Source of the DNA: an uncultured bacterium
Lineage (GTDB): Bacteria; UBA8248; CAZNSX01
Assembly (NCBI GenBank): GCA_964575845.1
Contig: CAZNSX010000007.1
Coordinates: 80,772-144,771, forward strand
Direction of reading: 5' to 3'
DNA: 64,000 nt
The notes under the pieces are model-generated. The model was given only the letters and a program-made list of their open reading frames with translations, was not told where the DNA came from and did no database searches. This document shows positions 1 to 53,305 of the stretch, piece after piece; the stretch's first letter is position 1; each line of letters begins with the position of its first letter. The position numbers were made by a program, and so were the translations under genes.

Positions 1-537
1 TTCTTGGCTATGGCGCCCGCCGCCACCCTGGCCGCGGTTTCGCGAGCGCTCGCACGGCCACCGCCCCGGTAGTCCCGGTGTCCGTATTTGACCCAGTAGG
101 TGTAATCGCCGTGGCTCGGACGTAAGAGCTCCTTGATGGCCTCGTAAGGAGCCGAGTCCACGGCCACGTTCTCTATCAGAAGGGAAATGGGAGCGCCCGT
201 GGTCTTTCCCTCGAATACCCCCGAGAGAATCTGCACCCGGTCGGGTTCCCGGCGGCGGGTCGTGGGGCGGCCCGGGGCGGGCCGCCCCCCCGCGCCCCCC
301 CCCCGAAACGCTTGTTGGGAAAAGGGGAGCCCCCCACCCCCCCCCGGGGGGGGGGGCGGGGGGGGGGGGGGGCCCGGGGGGGGGGGGGGCCCGCCGCCGG
401 TCGAGCTCCCTCTGAAGGTCTTCTTCGCAAAGGGGAAGCCCCGCCGGGCAGCCGTCCACCGAGGCACCCAAGGCCCGGCCATGAGACTCTCCCCAAGTGG
501 TAACCAGGAAAAGAGTGCCGAAGGTATTTCCGCCCAT
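1..537 (-). pseudogene. aroC: chorismate synthase, N-terminal part (gene runs off the left edge). The reading frame is broken by a G/C homopolymer block at about 262-402.
   Basis: My own minus-strand translation from the ATG at 537 gives [49 protein letters not shown]. From about 262 down to 1, in a different frame, it gives [88 protein letters not shown]. Both pieces match the conserved AroC N-terminus. It is absent from the ORF track because the frame is broken and the ORF is open at the window edge. Confidence 0.8.
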
Positions 538-46391: not shown

Positions 46392-46723
46392 AGGGGGGGG
46401 TTGGGGGAAGGAGGGTCAGGGGGGGCATTCGCGGGCCGCTGACTGCCAAACTTATGGCGGGAACGGCTGTTCGGGCTGCAGTCCCTAGGCCAGGGGCAAA
46501 GGATCACTGACCAGTAATTTTAGCCTCATTATACTCCACAGAGAACAGCTCACTCACTCCACCACAGCTGCCGGGATGGCGGAGGAATTTCAGGACCGTG
46601 CGGGGGCAGGGTTGCTCTGACAGATGTATTTCGGGGAGACATTTTTCTGTATTTCTAAAAAGACCCCTGCACGATAAGGCATGCAGATAATTCGGAGTTT
46701 TTACCTCTTGAGCTTCCAGGTCA

Positions 46724-47359
46724 TCATTTGGGCCACGCCTCTTTGCAGCGGAAATTGTTACACACGCGCCTATTTTCGTGGATATGGAGGCCTAATTTAG
46801 CGACAACTGACGGAAAGAGTGCTTCCAAAATTTCAGACGCAATCGCGATTGCTTTTGTCGCCTCCTCCTTGGAGACCAGGTCGGCTTGGTGAATAATCTT
46901 GTTACGTCGCTGCTGGAGCTCTTGCATCTCCTCCCAAAGAGGTTTCGAAGATCCGGAGCGCTTAAAGCTTTTAAGATCAACGCCGCCATATTCAGACAGA
47001 ATCCGAAATAAGGGATCGTTAAATTTGCTCAAGCTGGTGTACCTGATTACCAGGTCAGCGATGATTCCTGCTATCGATTCGCTGTGAACGAGGCCATACA
47101 CCACTGGCTTGAGCAACGTAACTTTGAGTCCCACTTCGACAGCGATAGCCGCAAATATGTGCGCAGCCGTAAAATGCTCGGGAAGGAGGCGGCGGGCTTC
47201 GGCTAGTGAGCGCAAGGGAGCCTCAGCAACCAGCGGATTAGCCACATAGAATGACTGCAAACGTTCAGCGGTGAATTCTTCGATCGCCAGCACTCTATGC
47301 TCCTGATACAATTCAATTATCCACTCCTCATAACGAGCCTCTTCCTCCGTCATGGACAT
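46724..47359 (-). CDS. uncharacterised protein with an RNxxxH (HEPN-type) motif
   Basis: An all-helical 211-aa protein with the motif LQQRRNKIIHQAD (R-x4-H, with Asn after Arg) near the C-terminal third. GGAGGG lies 6 nt before the ATG at 47359. It is in an AT-richer segment. Confidence 0.6.
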   Translation of the reverse strand: MSMTEEEARYEEWIIELYQEHRVLAIEEFTAERLQSFYVANPLVAEAPLRSLAEARRLLPEHFTAAHIFAAIAVEVGLKVTLLKPVVYGLVHSESIAGIIADLVIRYTSLSKFNDPLFRILSEYGGVDLKSFKRSGSSKPLWEEMQELQQRRNKIIHQADLVSKEEATKAIAIASEILEALFPSVVAKLGLHIHENRRVCNNFRCKEAWPK

Positions 47360-47380
47360 ATACAACCCTCCACGAAATCC

Positions 47381-47445
47381 TAGCCGGGTAGGTCACGGCT
47401 GCGCCGTGACCCTTGCTAACGGTGAGGCGCAGCCTCACCCTACCC
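47381..47445. repeat. composite palindromic intergenic element, copy a (module A + module B)
   Basis: tagccGGGTAGGTCACGGCtgcGCCGTGACCcttgctaacGGTGAGGCgcaGCCTCACCCTACCC. It has two perfect hairpins and terminal inverted GGGTAGG / CCTACCC. The TAG stop of the 90-aa ORF lies inside it. Confidence 0.85.
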
Positions 47446-47712
47446 CGCTTCCTCAATCTTTTCCCACTCCGCGCCCTCTCCATCAGGTCTGATGCAATGT
47501 CTCGCCCCGTTATCAAAAACAACTAGAGCACAAAAATCAGGCGTAATCTCCTGGCCCTCATAAGGCTCATGAGGAATTATTTCGACTACTGTTCCTTTCA
47601 CACCTTTCTCTAACCAAACCCCATTCGGCCAGGGCTCCTCCGATACTTTCAGGTCCCAACGCCATTTCCCGCCGATCCATTCCACTCTATCATCCTTCTT
47701 GAGAAAAGGCAT
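47440..47712 (-). CDS. small hypothetical protein, probably beta-rich and SH3-like
   Basis: A 90-aa protein. AAGGAGG lies 7 nt before the ATG at 47712. KGVKGTVVEIIPHEPYEGQ...ALVVFDNG is reminiscent of small DUF4926-type proteins (recollection only). Confidence 0.55.
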   Translation of the reverse strand: MPFLKKDDRVEWIGGKWRWDLKVSEEPWPNGVWLEKGVKGTVVEIIPHEPYEGQEITPDFCALVVFDNGARHCIRPDGEGAEWEKIEEAG

Positions 47713-47739
47713 CTTCACTCCTCCTTTATCTATGTGTAT

Positions 47740-47811
47740 AAGCCGGCTAGGTCATAGCTGCGGCGCGCTCAGTATTTTCATACAATCCTGGGGTGAAACC
47801 TCAGCCTACCT
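47740..47811. repeat. composite palindromic element, copy b (degenerate)
   Basis: aagccGGCTAGGTCATAGCTGCGGCGCGCTCAG...caatcctGGGGTGAAACCTCAGCCTACCT. Confidence 0.7.
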
Positions 47812-47826
47812 GACTATCATTTCAAA

Positions 47827-47860
47827 ATAATGCTGAGCAGCTTCCTCAGCCATCCCACCC
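47827..47860. repeat. module-B-only copy (b2)
   Basis: ataatGCTGAGcagcttcCTCAGCCATCCCACCC. Confidence 0.7.
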
Positions 47861-47920
47861 GTGCCATCTAAACCTCGAAATTCTCTGGAGCCAGAGTACC
47901 GAGAGCATATGTTTTAAACA

Positions 47921-49243
47921 TCATTGCGTGCGAAATTCCTCAAGGATATCTCTAAAGAATGTCCATTTCGTAATATCGGGGAGGTTTCTTAGCTCCGCAT
48001 ACGAATACCAGTTGTCATTGAGTTCCATCGCCGCAAGAGCCTTTTCAGCCTCTTCAAGATATATCTCAGAATTACCAGGGTCAACGATAGGTAATCGTAA
48101 AAGGAGAAGCTCGAGGCCTGCTATGTTTGGCATAATGTCATACACGACACTTCCAATATGCAGGGCTGAAGCAACCTGTTCTTTTTCTAATGGTTCATAT
48201 CCTTGCAAATGGCTCATATCCATCCATCGCTGGACTATTTCAACCGGCTTCTCTGCAAGTGTTTCTTTGGCGGGCCATGAAACAAATGCTCCCGTTGGAT
48301 ATATCCCCCTTTGATGAAGACTACTCAACACCTCTATATTTCTTATTATATCTCCGTAAGAAATTCCTACCCGCTCAAAAGTAAGCCGCCAAAACTCCTT
48401 CCAGAAATCCAGACCCTCTTTAGCAAGTTCTTGATGTTGTCCTAAGAGCTCGAAACGGTCTTTCCCCGCTTTTCGCGCCGCAAGCCAAAACAGGCGCTTT
48501 CTCTCCTTATCGGGCATTTCCTGAATCTCACTTTCGCTTAGACCGTTAGCCCAGTTATATTGTTCTGTGAGAACGCTTCTCTCCATGTCTTTGTAGATAA
48601 GCGAGCAGATTCTTTCCATGTTAAACCAATAAATCCGCGGTATATCCTTCTTCCTTATTATCCCCAGGTCATCTTCCTCTGCAACTTCTAGTAGCTTTCT
48701 TTCTATTTCTTTCGCTTTACTTGAGGGGTCTCGGATAATGGCTTGGAAAATATAAAACATGATGTTTTGGTTAACGACTTGCATTCTTTTCCAATGCTCT
48801 TCATTGAGGTATCTCGCGTCAGTGGGAAATCCTCGTGATTCAAGTAATTCTTTCTCGTAGGGCTTCCACCGGGCATGAACGATAACATTTCGGAGGTACT
48901 TAATTGCCAAGTAGTCATCGATGATTTCATTACTCGCTTTGACCCCTGCTTGCTCAAATGCATCACGCAAGCTTTTAATCTTTTCGCCATTCTTGGCGCC
49001 CTCTTTAAAGTAAATTGTTAAAATATTCAAGCCATGCTGCTCTTTCCATTTTTCTTTCCATTCCTTAAGCGCACTTTCAATGCTGGCGATCATCATTACA
49101 GCAAATATACGGCAATAGGAGGCATTACAGAGGTCTCTAACTGCCGCCTTCAAGGGGTGCGTTAAAGCGGCTAATCTCCCGCTCTGAAGAAAAATAATAT
49201 CATCGGTATAGATCTCAATAGCCTCAGCTCGTGGCATGACCAT
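47921..49243 (-). CDS. uncharacterised 440-aa protein: an N-terminal RNxxxH (HEPN-type) domain and an unknown helical C-terminal region
   Basis: The motif IKYLRNVIVHARW (R-x4-H) lies about 125 aa from the N-terminus, preceded by a helical segment. The remaining approximately 270 aa match nothing I recognise. GGAGGAG lies 6 nt before the ATG at 49243. It is in an AT-richer segment. Confidence 0.6.
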   Translation of the reverse strand: MVMPRAEAIEIYTDDIIFLQSGRLAALTHPLKAAVRDLCNASYCRIFAVMMIASIESALKEWKEKWKEQHGLNILTIYFKEGAKNGEKIKSLRDAFEQAGVKASNEIIDDYLAIKYLRNVIVHARWKPYEKELLESRGFPTDARYLNEEHWKRMQVVNQNIMFYIFQAIIRDPSSKAKEIERKLLEVAEEDDLGIIRKKDIPRIYWFNMERICSLIYKDMERSVLTEQYNWANGLSESEIQEMPDKERKRLFWLAARKAGKDRFELLGQHQELAKEGLDFWKEFWRLTFERVGISYGDIIRNIEVLSSLHQRGIYPTGAFVSWPAKETLAEKPVEIVQRWMDMSHLQGYEPLEKEQVASALHIGSVVYDIMPNIAGLELLLLRLPIVDPGNSEIYLEEAEKALAAMELNDNWYSYAELRNLPDITKWTFFRDILEEFRTQ

Positions 49244-49266
49244 AATATCTCCTCCAACACTCATCA

Positions 49267-49370
49267 GCGTAGGTCACGGCTGCCCTATAGCTAAATATAG
49301 CCGAGTAGGTCACCGCTACGCCGTGACCTACTTATCCCCCATAATGCTGAGCGGCGACCTCAGCCTACCC
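49267..49370. repeat. composite palindromic element, copy c (extra half module A + module A + module B)
   Basis: gcGTAGGTCACGGCtgccctatagctaaatatagccgAGTAGGTCACcgctacgccGTGACCTACTtatcccccataatGCTGAGcggcgacCTCAGCCTACCC. Confidence 0.85.
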
Positions 49371-49516
49371 AAGCACCTATTTAGCATAAAAGAAAAAGAG
49401 CTACAAGAATATTGAATTGTGCGAGAACCACAGGCGAAATCAGTGACTTCCCTGGATTTTTGTTCACATGTCAAGAATTTATCAAGGGCGGGCTGGGCCT
49501 TGGCGAGGCGCTGCTC

Positions 49517-50329: not shown

Positions 50330-50389
50330 AAGCCGGGCATAGCTATGGCGTGACCTACATAGACGGTGAGGCGCAGCCTCACCCCACCC
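50330..50389. repeat. composite palindromic element, copy d
   Basis: aagccGGGCATAGCTATGgcGTGACCTACatagacGGTGAGGCgcaGCCTCACCCCACCC. Confidence 0.8.
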
Positions 50390-50420: not shown

Positions 50421-51323
50421 CTACTTTCCCTTCATCTTTTCCCATTTCGCCCACCGGGCTTTGGCGGCCGCGGCGGGGAAGTGGACCAAATGGCACTTGA
50501 AACAGCTGTCCATCCCGAATCTCATCCAGATCGCCCCGACCGTCTTAGGAGTAGCGGAAGGGTCATCCAGAGCCCGCCCGAGCTTGTCTAAAAGAACCCT
50601 CGCGTCCTCATCGACGAAGTACTTCCTCTCGGTCTCATGGCAGAAAGCGCAGACCCCCCTCAGCGCCTGGAACCTTGCTTTGAACCTCTGAAGCTGCTTT
50701 TGAGCGTTCTCCCTCTGGCCCTGCTCGAAGTCCAGCAATATTCCCACAATGCTTTCGTCGAGGTGCAGCATCAGTTGGAGATAGACGACCTCCTCATTCG
50801 TCACCGGGTCTTTCACCCTTATCGTGTCGAAATCACGCCAGTGGTACCTTTGTTGAACCGAGGGCATGGTGGCTACGTGACAGTCAAAACAAAGCCCGCC
50901 CAATTTCTCGTGCGCCGCCAACACTTCTCCCTGGGCGCCGCTCTTGAGCGCTCTCCCGAGCTCCTCCACCGGGCCCATCGGATAGTTCTTCTCCCATTCG
51001 GGCACTATTTTGGATATTTCCACATACTGGGCCTTGAACCTCTCGAAATCGGCCCTGGCATTCTTAGTGTCGCCCTCAAGCAGGTCGGCGACAATTCCCA
51101 CAAAGGAAGAGTTCAACTCCAGCATTTTCACGAGATAGACGGGCTGCTCAGCCTTGGGAGGATAGAGCTTGTCCAGAGAGCTCGGAGGCGGAGCGGAGAA
51201 GGCCGCCGGGTTCCAGCTCTCAAGTTTGAAGCCTTCCGTTTTGCGACCCTGGGCATTTGCGAACGGGAGCGCAACGGCCAGAACGGTCAGGATACATATT
51301 AACTGTAAAGCTATTTTTCGCAT
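50421..51323 (-). CDS. secreted trihaem c-type cytochrome
   Basis: A signal peptide and three CxxCH motifs (CFDCH, CAFCH, CFKCH), each at the end of a helical approximately 90-aa segment (cytochrome c'-like arrangement). Confidence 0.7.
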   Translation of the reverse strand: MRKIALQLICILTVLAVALPFANAQGRKTEGFKLESWNPAAFSAPPPSSLDKLYPPKAEQPVYLVKMLELNSSFVGIVADLLEGDTKNARADFERFKAQYVEISKIVPEWEKNYPMGPVEELGRALKSGAQGEVLAAHEKLGGLCFDCHVATMPSVQQRYHWRDFDTIRVKDPVTNEEVVYLQLMLHLDESIVGILLDFEQGQRENAQKQLQRFKARFQALRGVCAFCHETERKYFVDEDARVLLDKLGRALDDPSATPKTVGAIWMRFGMDSCFKCHLVHFPAAAAKARWAKWEKMKGK

Positions 51324-51399
51324 AGTACCTACTCTCCTTTTGAGTTGGAAAAGCGTTTCAGCTGGTTTCTGCCAAGAGAAAAGCTTCGTCTCCCCTCCC

Positions 51400-51516
51400 C
51401 TATTCCGTCTTGAACCTGAAGGCGCCGTATTTCTTCAGGATGCGCTGATAATCCCCCTGGTAGATGCGGTCATATTCTTTGAGCCAGCCGTGGGATTCTT
51501 CTCTCCAGTGAATGCT
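51400..51516 (-). pseudogene. orphan 3' end fragment of a CN-hydrolase paralogue
   Basis: It translates as SIHWREESHGWLKEYDRIYQGDYQRILKKYGAFRFKTE*. The C-terminus of the 52262-53305 gene reads YWREDLEGWLKEYDRIYQGDYARILKKYGGPFRFKTE*. About 110 bp are alignable, and by eye most aligned positions are identical. It starts directly after the hepT stop. Confidence 0.75.
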
Positions 51517-51852
51517 CTACCCCAGCGACCGCAGGATTTCCTGTGCCTTTCCCTTGAGCTTTGGCAGGTCCTCCCCCACCGTTTTCCAGACCTCTTCCAG
51601 GTCAATCCCGAAATACTCATGCACCAACACGTTTCGCATGGCGATGACGGCACCCCAAGGGACCGCCGGATTTTGCTCCCGCAGCCGCCGTGATAATCCC
51701 GAGGCCGCCTCGCCGATGATTTGGAGATGATGAACCATCCAGACCTGGATGAGCTTATCTTTGCGGAAGGCCTCCTTGCCTTTGGTCGCTTGGCTTTCGA
51801 TGTTTGAGATGGCTTCGAGGATATCCAGGAGGCGCTGCCGGTCGTCTCTCAA
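51517..51852 (-). CDS. hepT: HepT-type HEPN toxin (DUF86)
   Basis: LLDILEAISNIE..., IIGEAA and AMRNVLVHEYFGID (R-x4-H) motifs. A TTG start at 51852 overlaps the mnt stop (TTGA). Confidence 0.8.
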   Translation of the reverse strand: MRDDRQRLLDILEAISNIESQATKGKEAFRKDKLIQVWMVHHLQIIGEAASGLSRRLREQNPAVPWGAVIAMRNVLVHEYFGIDLEEVWKTVGEDLPKLKGKAQEILRSLG

Positions 51853-52139
51853 AGGGGAACCGCTTCTCGCATGACGCGCTCCCGGACGCGTGGCCTGAGG
51901 CCTCGGTCGCTCACCAGGTTGACCTTGCACCCCAGGAGGGCTTCCAGTTCCTGTGCGAGCGCCGCATGCGTGAAGAGGCTCATGTCCGGCCCCGGGTCGA
52001 TGAGCAGGTCGATGTCGCTCTCAGAGTCCGCCTCCCCCCGCGCCACCGAGCCAAAGACGCGCACGTTGCGGGCCCCATAACGGTCTATGACCCGCAGGAC
52101 TTCCTCTCGTTTTTGCTTCAGAAGGGTATGGAGCTTCAT
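51849..52139 (-). CDS. mntA: MNT-type nucleotidyltransferase antitoxin
   Basis: VRVFGSVARGEADSESDIDLLID (minimal NTase G-S-x10-D-x-D motif); 96 aa. Confidence 0.85.
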   Translation of the reverse strand: MKLHTLLKQKREEVLRVIDRYGARNVRVFGSVARGEADSESDIDLLIDPGPDMSLFTHAALAQELEALLGCKVNLVSDRGLRPRVRERVMREAVPL

Positions 52140-52212
52140 TGCAATACTTCGGCCTTTAGTTTGAACCAGAGAGGAGGATTGGCTTTCTTGAGCATTATAG
52201 CACTTTCCGAGA

Positions 52213-52241
52213 CAATGCTCAGCCGCGGCCTGAGCCTACCC
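52213..52241. repeat. module-B-only copy (e)
   Basis: caatGCTCAGccgcggcCTGAGCCTACCC. The stem carries a compensated G/C swap relative to copy c. Confidence 0.75.
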
Positions 52242-52261
52242 GAATTAACCTTCCCCCTCCC

Positions 52262-53305
52262 CTACTCCGTTTTGAACCTGAAAGGGCCCCCGTATTTTTT
52301 CAGGATGCGCGCGTAATCCCCCTGATAAATCCGGTCGTACTCTTTGAGCCAGCCCTCAAGGTCCTCGCGCCAGTATAAGTAATCGTAGGAGTAGGGGCTC
52401 CGCTCGGCAAGGCGCTTGTAGATCTCGGGGTAGCGCTCGAAGATCTGGCCGGGGCGGCAGCCGATGGGCTTCCAGTCGGGGTCATCGGGTTTTGAGAGGT
52501 TCTCCTCGTCGTAGTTCCGGGTGCGGAGGTAGCGGAGGCGGTCCATGTCGAGGTCTATGACGAGTATTCCGGGCTCCTCAAGCGTCCCGAGCATTTCCTC
52601 CGGGCCGGCAACGAGCGCGCCAGCGCTCGTAGTTGAGTAGCCGACGCCTTTTATCGAGTAAAGATGCTGGGTGACGATCACGTAGTAGAGGTTTTCAGCG
52701 GCGCGAGAGCGGGCGACGCAGCGCCAGGTGTCCCTCAGTCTGATGCCGGTCCTGCTGTGGGTCCCGTGGACGGGCGAGACGATTATCTCGGCCCCATCGA
52801 GCATGAGGAGCCTGCCGAGCTCCGGTACGAAGAGCTCGCTGCAGATGGAAAGGCCGATGCGGCCGAGCTCCGTCTTGACTACGCAAGACCCCTCGCCCGG
52901 AAGCAGATGCGCCTTTCCGTCATAGAGGTAGGCGTTGAGGGGAGGGGTGTCCGGCTGCTGGCGGCGGTAGTGGGCTACCTCTTTCCCCTCGGGAGAGATG
53001 AGCCTTAAGGTGAGATATTGCGCGCCCGGAATCTCGCTCTCTATCACATCGCCCGCAATTATATGCATCCCGTGCTCTTTCGCCTTCTCCTTGAGCCTCT
53101 CAAGGGGCTTGAAGGGATACTTCGGGTTATCGAGCGGCCCCGTTGCCGGCCCAGGGTAGCCTTCCGGGTAGAGGAGAAGTTCTACACCCTTAGATGCGGC
53201 CTCGTCCGCATAGTTTATTGCGTTCTCTGCGTTCTGCCACTCGGCCTCACCGAAAAAGGATGCCGGCAGCACAGCACCGACTCTTACCTTTGAGGGAGAA
53301 GACAT
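52262..53305 (-). CDS. carbon-nitrogen hydrolase (nitrilase superfamily) protein
   Basis: LLLYPEGYPGP (Glu), a conserved Lys region, and RIGLSICSELFVPE (Cys nucleophile). AAGGAGGA lies upstream of the ATG. Confidence 0.75.
   Translation of the reverse strand: MSSPSKVRVGAVLPASFFGEAEWQNAENAINYADEAASKGVELLLYPEGYPGPATGPLDNPKYPFKPLERLKEKAKEHGMHIIAGDVIESEIPGAQYLTLRLISPEGKEVAHYRRQQPDTPPLNAYLYDGKAHLLPGEGSCVVKTELGRIGLSICSELFVPELGRLLMLDGAEIIVSPVHGTHSRTGIRLRDTWRCVARSRAAENLYYVIVTQHLYSIKGVGYSTTSAGALVAGPEEMLGTLEEPGILVIDLDMDRLRYLRTRNYDEENLSKPDDPDWKPIGCRPGQIFERYPEIYKRLAERSPYSYDYLYWREDLEGWLKEYDRIYQGDYARILKKYGGPFRFKTE

Follow-up and report, generated by a model that had tools for sequence, protein, structure and literature searches.

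A likely stack of independent single-gene elements, two of them from putative solo-HEPN families, in a palindrome-rich locus of an uncultured bacterium

HEPN domains usually dimerise, and in doing so they form a composite Rx4H RNase site. We describe here three adjacent minus-strand genes, called gene1, gene2 and gene3 in the following, from a 64-kb stretch of DNA of an uncultured bacterium (GenBank assembly GCA_964575845.1, contig CAZNSX010000007.1, positions 80,772 to 144,771 of the forward strand). This whole stretch will be referred to as the window. Gene1 and gene3 encode putative HEPN proteins, and gene2, which lies between them, encodes a small protein of a different kind.

HEPN proteins have been defined by an Rx4-6H motif in which the residue following the arginine is ‘mostly N, D or H’, with the active site at the end of core helix 3 of a four-helix bundle (PMC3710099). 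Helix 2 bears a conserved acidic residue, typically as E-x3-[KR], and an insert lies between helices 2 and 3. In Escherichia coli, DARNA (PD-T7-3) is an abortive-infection system made of a single protein, a HEPN tRNA anticodon nuclease (bioRxiv 10.64898/2026.02.22.705581; Vassallo 2022, PMC9519451), which is activated by single-stranded DNA, assembles as a dodecamer and has tRNA as its target (bioRxiv 10.64898/2026.02.22.705581). ApeA is likewise a stand-alone HEPN anti-phage protein (bioRxiv 10.64898/2026.01.26.701840). Both ApeA and DARNA are held inactive until an infection cue switches them on, upon which tRNA anticodon loops are cut (bioRxiv 10.64898/2026.01.26.701840; 10.64898/2026.02.22.705581). 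HEPN genes have also been described as mobile cassettes. The ‘Integron cassette HEPN’ family (PDB 3jrt), with a conserved Rx4-6H, was described in 2013 (Anantharaman et al. 2013, PMC3710099), and many small defence systems, among them the HEPN protein AbiV (cassette brcN; bioRxiv 10.1101/2024.07.02.601719), are now known from integron cassettes. Homologues of cassettes that lie outside integrons and have no attC site are documented as well (bioRxiv 10.1101/2024.07.02.601719).

An earlier note on this DNA, made from its letters without database searches, had proposed the three genes as an undescribed defence or toxin-antitoxin system. The description given there was borne out: open reading frame calls, GC bins and repeat matches agree on three minus-strand frames of 440, 90 and 211 residues, with good ribosome-binding sites, in the most AT-rich stretch of the window and with palindromes in their spacers. 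The RNxxxH peptides named there were located in gene1 (IKYLRNVIVHARW, residues 114-126) and in gene3 (LQQRRNKIIHQAD, residues 148-160). As to the nature of the locus, our analysis points elsewhere. We consider it likely that three accessory elements of one gene each, two from uncharacterised solo-HEPN families and one an unrelated small-domain gene, were acquired independently and became stacked here, and that these do not form a system.

Composition sets the three genes apart from the host and from each other. The bin 48001-49000 has the lowest GC content of the window (0.437 versus 0.59 overall), and the GC content at third codon positions (GC3) is 0.44 for gene1, 0.50 for gene2 and 0.56 for gene3, versus 0.68-0.88 in the surrounding host genes. 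Because these values fall below those of the host genes and are unequal among the trio, all three genes are compositionally foreign and also different from one another. The start codons are the same in the database representatives (P0001, 440 residues; P0179, 90 residues; P0059, 211 residues); a longer frame of 447 residues starts at 49264. Scanning the window for Rfam families and tRNA genes gave no match.

Evidence for independent acquisition comes from the loci of relatives. A metagenome scan with the gene1 family gave 78 loci, brought to 80 by two direct look-ups, and a scan of one genome per species gave 28 loci with gene3 relatives. At the 80 gene1 loci, searches detected no relative of gene2 or gene3, either by tblastn or by family hidden Markov models run on all open reading frames, and no gene1 or gene2 relative was detected in the 28 genomes with gene3 relatives. 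Over all 125 loci (1.10 Mb), gene1 relatives were present in 86, gene3 relatives in 38 and gene2 relatives in one, with an overlap of zero. The survey of homologues that the earlier note had suggested thus returned no case of the trio in 125 loci. Clustering of the flanking reading frames gave no conserved neighbour for either HEPN family, the recurrent ‘families’ being shadow frames inside the genes themselves. Besides attC sites, no conserved non-coding flank was found upstream or downstream of the homologues (46 gene1 and 12 gene3 loci with at least 300 nt upstream), which argues against a conserved RNA antitoxin.

The attC sites show how these genes travel elsewhere. Canonical sites (GGCTAAC...GTTAGCC) with the usual imperfect hairpin were seen downstream of gene1 relatives, and eight of them were used to build a covariance model, R1; a site was counted when it lay at most 150 nt from a homologue and on the same strand. 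R1 was used instead of a home-made finder based on regular expressions and folding, which was dropped after giving 12 matches in ordinary coding DNA of the window. With R1, attC sites adjoin gene1 relatives at 13 loci (L016, L025, L010, L035, L017, L040, L057, L069, L062, L018, L001, L121 and L122), several of which are flanked by sites left and right or belong to arrays. Six of these loci (L017, L018, L057, L069, L121 and L122) had given no training site to R1. In the case of gene3, sites adjoin the relatives at L081/L082, on both sides and with a third further on, and at L103. The sites beside homologues score 22-77 bits. These counts are lower bounds, because only about 44-46 gene1 loci have a testable flank and because R1 is narrow. 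Outside the window, members of both HEPN families are found as integron cassettes that hold a single gene.

The contexts of the relatives are varied. One gene1 relative lies in an integron array that also holds an RE_XamI/Eco57I restriction-modification pair (L121, 600-9360), and another has a SieB superinfection-exclusion gene as its next gene, from which an attC site separates it (L122, 8001-10010). On Klebsiella IncF plasmids, a gene1 homologue of 30% identity lies beside the PADLOC candidates PDC-S11 and PDC-S26 (L120, 6989-10840). Relatives of gene3 were found on plasmids of Burkholderia and Cupriavidus, and one has a NERD-kinase-helicase, an integrase and a transposase nearby. A gene3 relative of 61% identity belongs to a Hadarchaeota archaeon (L083, 5326-5946) and others to at least eight bacterial phyla, which speaks for wide horizontal transfer, across domains too. 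Scans of viral contigs found gene1 relatives on two contigs, gene3 relatives on two and gene2 relatives on none; on these numbers a phage origin was considered unsupported.

We then turn to the HEPN assignment. The gene3 family consists of 129 hypothetical proteins. In its alignment (A2, 94 sequences), E75, K79 and R152 are each kept in 94 of 94 sequences and H157 in 93; residue 153, which follows the arginine, is N in 82, D in nine and H in three, so that one of these three residues is present in all 94. The gene1 family consists of 58 hypothetical proteins without a Pfam domain, and in its alignment (A1, 56 sequences) D110, L112, A113, K115, Y116, L117, R118, N119 and H123 are invariant (56/56), following the pattern D..LAIKYLRN...H. 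In addition, E56 is present in 52 of the 56 and replaced by D in three more; the residue four positions after it is E, K or Q, which does not make a strict E-x3-[KR]. Judged by this conservation, the RNxxxH motifs of both families are more than a product of chance.

AlphaFold models of the two proteins, built from the family alignments, are all-helical, with a predicted local distance difference test score (pLDDT) of 88.4 for gene1 and 90.1 for gene3. In both models a long helix bears the motif at its C-terminus, with another long helix after it, as in the HEPN active site. In the case of gene1, H123 is the last residue of helix 105-123, after which come helices 128-136 and 148-170; E56 sits within the long helix 30-70. 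In the case of gene3, R152..H157 form the end of helix 141-158, and helix 164-188 comes next. The long helix 63-91 contains E75 and K79 (E-x3-K, HEPN helix 2), and between it and helix 141-158 come helices 94-125 and a hairpin, in the manner of a HEPN helix 2-3 insert. With these motif residues, the N, D or H after the arginine and the modelled position at the helix end, the two proteins match the published HEPN definition (PMC3710099).

Matches to known families follow the same direction at lower scores. The best Pfam match of gene3 is RiboL-PSP, with 19.9 bits at a cut-off of 28.4. Scanned singly, its relatives gave sub-threshold Pfam matches to HEPN, RiboL-PSP, Swt1, Apea, AbiV and Cthe2314, and weak PADLOC matches to DUF3644 (26 of 94) as well as to RTasHEPN, CARF_HEPN, Csx1/Csm6, Cas13a, PD-T4-2_B and PD-T7-4; these weak matches fall almost only on HEPN models. 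With Foldseek against the PDB, the gene3 model matched HEPN 1wol (probability 0.66, target-normalised template modelling (TM) score 0.47, E above 1), with HepT entries and Csm6 lower down, and nothing significant over the full length. Gene1 itself had no match in Pfam, NCBIfam, PADLOC or PHROG; scanned singly, its 56 relatives matched DUF4145 in three cases, DUF3644 in two and Csx1/Csm6/CARF_HEPN in one each (E 0.006-0.06). Local Foldseek matches of the gene1 model in the PDB were HEPN 1wwp (target-normalised TM 0.55) and the HepT toxin 7ae6 (0.48), with probability 0.66 and E above 2, and the full-length search found nothing significant in the PDB or BFVD. For either model, the only local matches at probability 0.66 are HEPN proteins. 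When the family profiles were compared with PDB sequences, neither found a HEPN entry and gene1 found nothing at all. Aligning the two families with hhalign paired only their RN..H helices (P = 0.008, probability 5%), a result that we do not count as proof.

We assign gene3 with good confidence as a divergent HEPN protein. Gene1 is probably a HEPN protein as well, as suggested by its motif, its predicted topology and the local fold matches. Support is stronger for gene3, with matches that are consistent in the 211-residue family and sparse in the 440-residue family. As a whole, the HEPN fold of both would follow from predicted structures and weak matches, and a metal-independent RNase activity that depends on the R and H, together with dimerisation, would be expected. 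Of the two HEPN-motif proteins put forward by the earlier note, the motif part stood, being family-wide and at a helix end in the models. Comparison with established HEPN families, by profile or by fold, gave matches below threshold: the local Foldseek matches at probability 0.66 are to HEPN proteins and none is significant, and PADLOC gave no match for gene1 and gene2 and, among gene3 relatives, weak matches mostly to HEPN models. Two further observations of that note were confirmed. Neither large protein resembles the DUF86 HepT of the window (BLASTP, best E 0.13; no DUF86/HepT-like Pfam match), and no NTP_transf_2 gene, that is, no minimal nucleotidyltransferase (MNT) partner, adjoins gene1 or gene3, either here or in the loci of the homologues.

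In the case of gene2, no Pfam, PADLOC, NCBIfam or PHROG match was obtained. A word-indexed homologue search returned the protein itself only; its status as an ‘orphan’ was rejected after an exhaustive phmmer search, which found 21 relatives of 34-51% identity. Gene2 therefore encodes a real small domain. The relatives (P0180-P0200) share a domain of about 85 residues, alone or fused to SAP, DUF192 or DUF6782, in which F3, W28, P29, G31, W33, G40 and W83 are invariant. Two proteins longer than 1,100 residues show partial, repeated matches, and one relative lies within a run of small, tightly packed genes. Among the contexts and architectures of the relatives, no link of this domain to HEPN genes was detected. 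By sequence comparison, gene2 represents a rare separate domain family that is unrelated to the flanking genes, and its proposed role as antitoxin or adaptor found no support. The coordinates of the three genes and of the features around them are collected in the table.

Table. Features of the locus. All coordinates count the stop codon in; positions of motifs and parts follow the numbering of the 64-kb window, except where residues are given.
Feature	Position	Strand	Description
gene1	47921-49243	(-)	440 residues; ATG start 3' of GGAGGA; all-helical protein
gene1, R118-H123	48875-48892		putative HEPN motif
gene1, N-terminal HEPN-like lobe	residues ~1-170		R118-N119-x3-H123; from model
gene1, C-terminal helical lobe	residues ~198-440		from model
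gene2	47440-47712	(-)	90 residues; strong ribosome-binding site AAAGGAGGA; one small conserved domain
gene3	46724-47359	(-)	211 residues; ribosome-binding site GGAGGG; helical HEPN-like protein
gene3, R152-H157	46889-46906		putative HEPN motif
Promoter-like site	49485-49456		upstream of gene1
Intrinsic-terminator-like hairpin with T-run	46666-46687	(-)	downstream of gene3
E1	52212-52242	(-)	first hairpin only; spacer between CN_hydrolase gene and MNT-HepT pair
E2	50335-50389	(-)	same family; spacer between 300-residue cytochrome-like gene and acetolactate decarboxylase gene
E3	49262-49371	(-)	upstream of gene1; hairpin GGGTAGG-CTGAGG-N6-CTCAGC, then GTAGGTCACGGCGTAGCGGTGACCTAC and an extra half copy
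E4	47740-47857	(-)	gene1/gene2 spacer; two first-hairpin copies and a degenerate second hairpin
E4, first hairpin and T-run	47832-47850		terminator-like score
E5	47378-47446	(-)	gene2/gene3 spacer; two inverted copies, foldable as a 24-bp imperfect hairpin
E5, GGGTAGG head	47440-47446		contains TAG stop of gene2
MNT-HepT pair	51517-52139		HepT-MntA, type VII toxin-antitoxin; 2.5 kb away
300-residue open reading frame	50421-51323		probably a small multihaem cytochrome
Copy of CN_hydrolase gene 3' end	51383-51509		compared with 52254-52374

The spacers of the locus carry a family of palindromes. The pattern GGTAGGCTGAGGN6CTCAGC, with up to three mismatches, has six matches versus 0.12 expected, and the full element reads GGGTAGG-CTGAGG-N6-CTCAGC-ATTRT, then (GTAG)GTCACGGCG-N-AGC-N-GTGACCTAC-N-CGGCTA. 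Five clusters, E1 to E5, were found, all in one orientation and only at 47.4-52.2 kb of the window, where they stand between every gene pair. As single-stranded DNA, E5 folds with -24.7 kcal/mol (z = -4.75), either as one long imperfect hairpin or as two small ones. The stop codon of gene2 lies inside the head of E5, and thus the last codons of gene2 come from the repeat. The elements are not confined to the HEPN genes, since they are also present ahead of the MNT-HepT pair and of the acetolactate decarboxylase gene (GC3 0.88, host-like). Their identification as attC sites was rejected, with no AAC/GTT cores present and nothing found in 46-53 kb by the unfiltered attC model.

Repetitive extragenic palindromic (REP) elements and REPIN (BIME) elements are mobilised by RAYT transposases and have dispersed copies in the genome. 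By form, with a GTAG head, a GC-rich palindrome and inverted doublets, we take the palindromes of the window to be REP/REPIN-like. The likeness extends to the combination of head and imperfect palindrome, the long hairpin given by the inverted doublets, the intergenic position and the clustered partial copies. In contrast to REP/REPIN elements, the copies are not dispersed, all of them lying in 5 kb of the 64 kb, and an exact-pattern scan of 185,579 GTDB genomes found 0 copies.

The data on relatives, spacers and motifs allow several other explanations to be weighed. The module of the earlier note would consist of two HEPN toxins and a 90-residue antitoxin or adaptor, co-transcribed from a promoter upstream of gene1. 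Such a unit would fit the common strand, the short spacers and good ribosome-binding sites, the promoter-like site 5' of gene1 with the terminator-like hairpin 3' of gene3, and the foreign composition of all three genes; a 94-residue gene after one gene3 relative (L111) could also be counted in its favour, but its protein is dissimilar to gene2. On the other side, a terminator-like hairpin lies 3' of gene1, the GC3 values of gene1 and gene3 are 12 points apart, and the rare gene2 family is found in unrelated architectures and contexts. None of the 125 loci holds two of the families, neither HEPN family has a conserved neighbour, and their homologues are separate one-gene attC cassettes. We regard a three-gene system of this kind as very unlikely and, given the comparative data, as already largely refuted. 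A related explanation would make each HEPN gene a toxin whose structured-RNA antitoxin derives from the palindromes upstream, as in AbiF/type III systems. Structured repeats do lie directly upstream of both HEPN genes, and AbiF provides a precedent of an RNA antitoxin for a HEPN toxin. However, such repeats are also found ahead of gene2, the MNT-HepT pair and the acetolactate decarboxylase gene, and none of the other loci contains them. Nor do the 46 gene1 and 12 gene3 loci with sufficient upstream sequence share a flank, and we regard this arrangement as very improbable.

The palindromes could also be read as the sites at which a recombination system other than IntI took up the three genes singly, the locus then being a decayed or unconventional integron-like array. 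One element between each gene pair, in a single orientation and only at 47.4-52.2 kb, the folding into long imperfect hairpins, the heterogeneity of the genes in GC3 and function, and the existence of homologues that are true integron cassettes would all suit an array. Against it stand the lack of an AAC/GTT core and of an unfiltered attC covariance match, the lack of a recombinase among the ten neighbouring genes scanned, the absence of any copy in the exact-pattern scan of genomes, and the combination of head, palindrome and inverted doublets, which looks REP/REPIN-like. We consider an array improbable. As for the proteins, one or both might not be HEPN nucleases, the RNxxxH serving as a structural or binding motif of another helical fold with a non-nuclease role. 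The lack of a significant Pfam, PDB-sequence or Foldseek match, the scattered matches of gene1 (E 0.006-0.06) and the inter-family hhalign probability of only 5% could be read in this way. Yet it is exactly the R, the polar N and the H that are kept invariant, the motif stands at a helix end as in HEPN, and an acidic residue of the preceding long helix is conserved. Moreover, the weak matches of gene3 are to HEPN models, with DUF3644 in 26 of 94 members, and the sole local fold matches at probability 0.66 are HEPN proteins. A non-HEPN identity thus seems rather unlikely to us.

If gene1 and gene3 are solo HEPN proteins, DARNA offers the closest plan for gene1. With 456 residues for DARNA and 440 for gene1, both are products of one gene and all-helical; the N-terminal HEPN-type domain spans residues 1-159 in DARNA and approximately 1-170 in gene1, the motif is R117x4H122 versus R118x4H123, and in both a helical C-terminal domain of about 240-300 residues comes after the HEPN lobe. 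This compares the description of DARNA with the model of gene1, and no sequence link between the two was found. Up to E = 1, neither gene1 nor any of its 56 relatives nor the homologue from Klebsiella matched PD-T7-3 in PADLOC, the presence of a PD-T7-3 model in PADLOC-DB 2.0.0 being deduced from that of the PD-T7-4 and PD-T4-2 models. PF18737 (MAE_28990), apparently reported for PD-T7-3, has no match in gene1, the DARNA structures (9tra and related) are not among the PDB matches of gene1, and the DNA of the Klebsiella gene1 relative found no homologue in 5,426 E. coli genomes. That gene1 works like DARNA or ApeA is hence offered as a hypothesis by analogy, and membership of either family is not claimed.

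Other described systems resemble the two genes in part. Like ApeA and AbiV, gene1 and gene3 would be one-gene HEPN proteins that have no partner and are found in variable or defence contexts, AbiV being known as an integron cassette too. HEPN_Apea and HEPN_AbiV were weakly matched (E 0.002-0.006) by one or two of the 94 gene3 relatives, far under thresholds, and gene1 and gene3 differ from ApeA and AbiV in size and in extra domains. With the ‘Integron cassette HEPN’ family, the relatives of gene1 and gene3 share the lifestyle of a mobile cassette, whereas the copies in the window have no flanking attC; since 3jrt is not among the listed fold or sequence matches of gene1 and gene3, these belong to different HEPN families. 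The HepT-MntA pair of the window has the Rx4H signature in common with them, and the HepT structures 7ae6, 7ae8 and 6m6u are among their few local fold matches. In contrast to HepT, gene1 and gene3 have no adjoining nucleotidyltransferase, no DUF86/HepT-like Pfam match and no BLASTP similarity to the HepT of the window, and their proteins are 1.5-3 times larger, with extra domains.

For a stack of single-gene elements, the following mechanism can be proposed. Gene1 and gene3 proteins would most likely each dimerise through the HEPN domain, giving a composite Rx4H RNase site, and each would most likely work without a partner, as an effector in conflict or defence in the manner of abortive infection. 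The enzyme would be kept inactive by its own non-catalytic parts until switched on by an infection cue. In the case of gene1, the brake would be the C-terminal helical lobe of about 240 residues; in the case of gene3, it would be the N-terminal extension of about 60 residues together with the insert between helices. Both families spread horizontally one gene at a time, often in the form of integron cassettes, and in this genome the trio sits among REP-like palindromic repeats that also separate unrelated neighbour genes. The genes, their conserved motifs, the lack of co-occurrence, the attC sites beside homologues and the foreign composition are shown by the data; we infer the defence role of gene1 and gene3 and its regulation. 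A bolder version, which we put forward tentatively as possible, would see in the gene1 family (about 430 residues, with a HEPN-like N-terminal lobe and a conserved helical C-terminal lobe) an unrecognised clade of single-protein, infection-sensing HEPN abortive-infection nucleases, analogous to DARNA and spread mainly by integrons, with the palindromes as a second, non-integron route of stacking into a small defence island.

Several observations weigh against the stack of solo elements. A HEPN toxin that acts alone normally requires a brake, and the analysis brought none to light for gene1 or gene3. The copies in the window have no attC sites: R1, run unfiltered over the window, gave three matches at chance level (E 3-6), none of them in 46-53 kb, and no integrase was found among the ten neighbouring genes scanned, to which the IntI scan was limited. 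Many of the comparison contigs are short, which lowers the power to see neighbours, and strand, spacing and repeats are common to the trio, so that local co-transcription is conceivable. As to the proteins, the HEPN call of gene1 leans mainly on the motif and the predicted topology, and no PADLOC defence model matches it. For both proteins, no profile or fold match is significant, the best Foldseek E-values being 0.2-0.6 and the Pfam matches staying below the gathering thresholds.

Taken as a stack, the locus illustrates that adjacency in a variable region is no evidence of a system. The adjacency of the trio would be an accident of gene stacking, and the costly experimental pursuit of a three-gene system can be spared. 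What the analysis does yield is two stand-alone HEPN-type families, of about 430 and 210 residues, which as one-gene cassettes found across many phyla are candidate anti-phage or addiction modules. The gene1 family shares the domain plan of DARNA, a nuclease solved only recently, without detectable sequence similarity and, if this holds true, the class of sensor-nucleases would widen. The conceptual gain is modest, because single-gene HEPN defence proteins and HEPN integron cassettes were already known.

Two observations were made in the neighbourhood. Over the approximately 125 nt following the HepT stop, the sequence repeats the end of the CN_hydrolase gene (3' side) with 84% identity, its stop codon and the following GGGGAGGGG included. 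With such copies on both sides, the block of E1, MNT and HepT sits between direct repeats, which look like an insertion footprint or like what is left of a second hydrolase gene. The 300-residue open reading frame beside the acetolactate decarboxylase gene has an N-terminus resembling a signal peptide, three CxxCH motifs and a weak match to domains of the outer-membrane cytochromes MtrC/MtrF, features that suggest that it probably encodes a small multihaem cytochrome.

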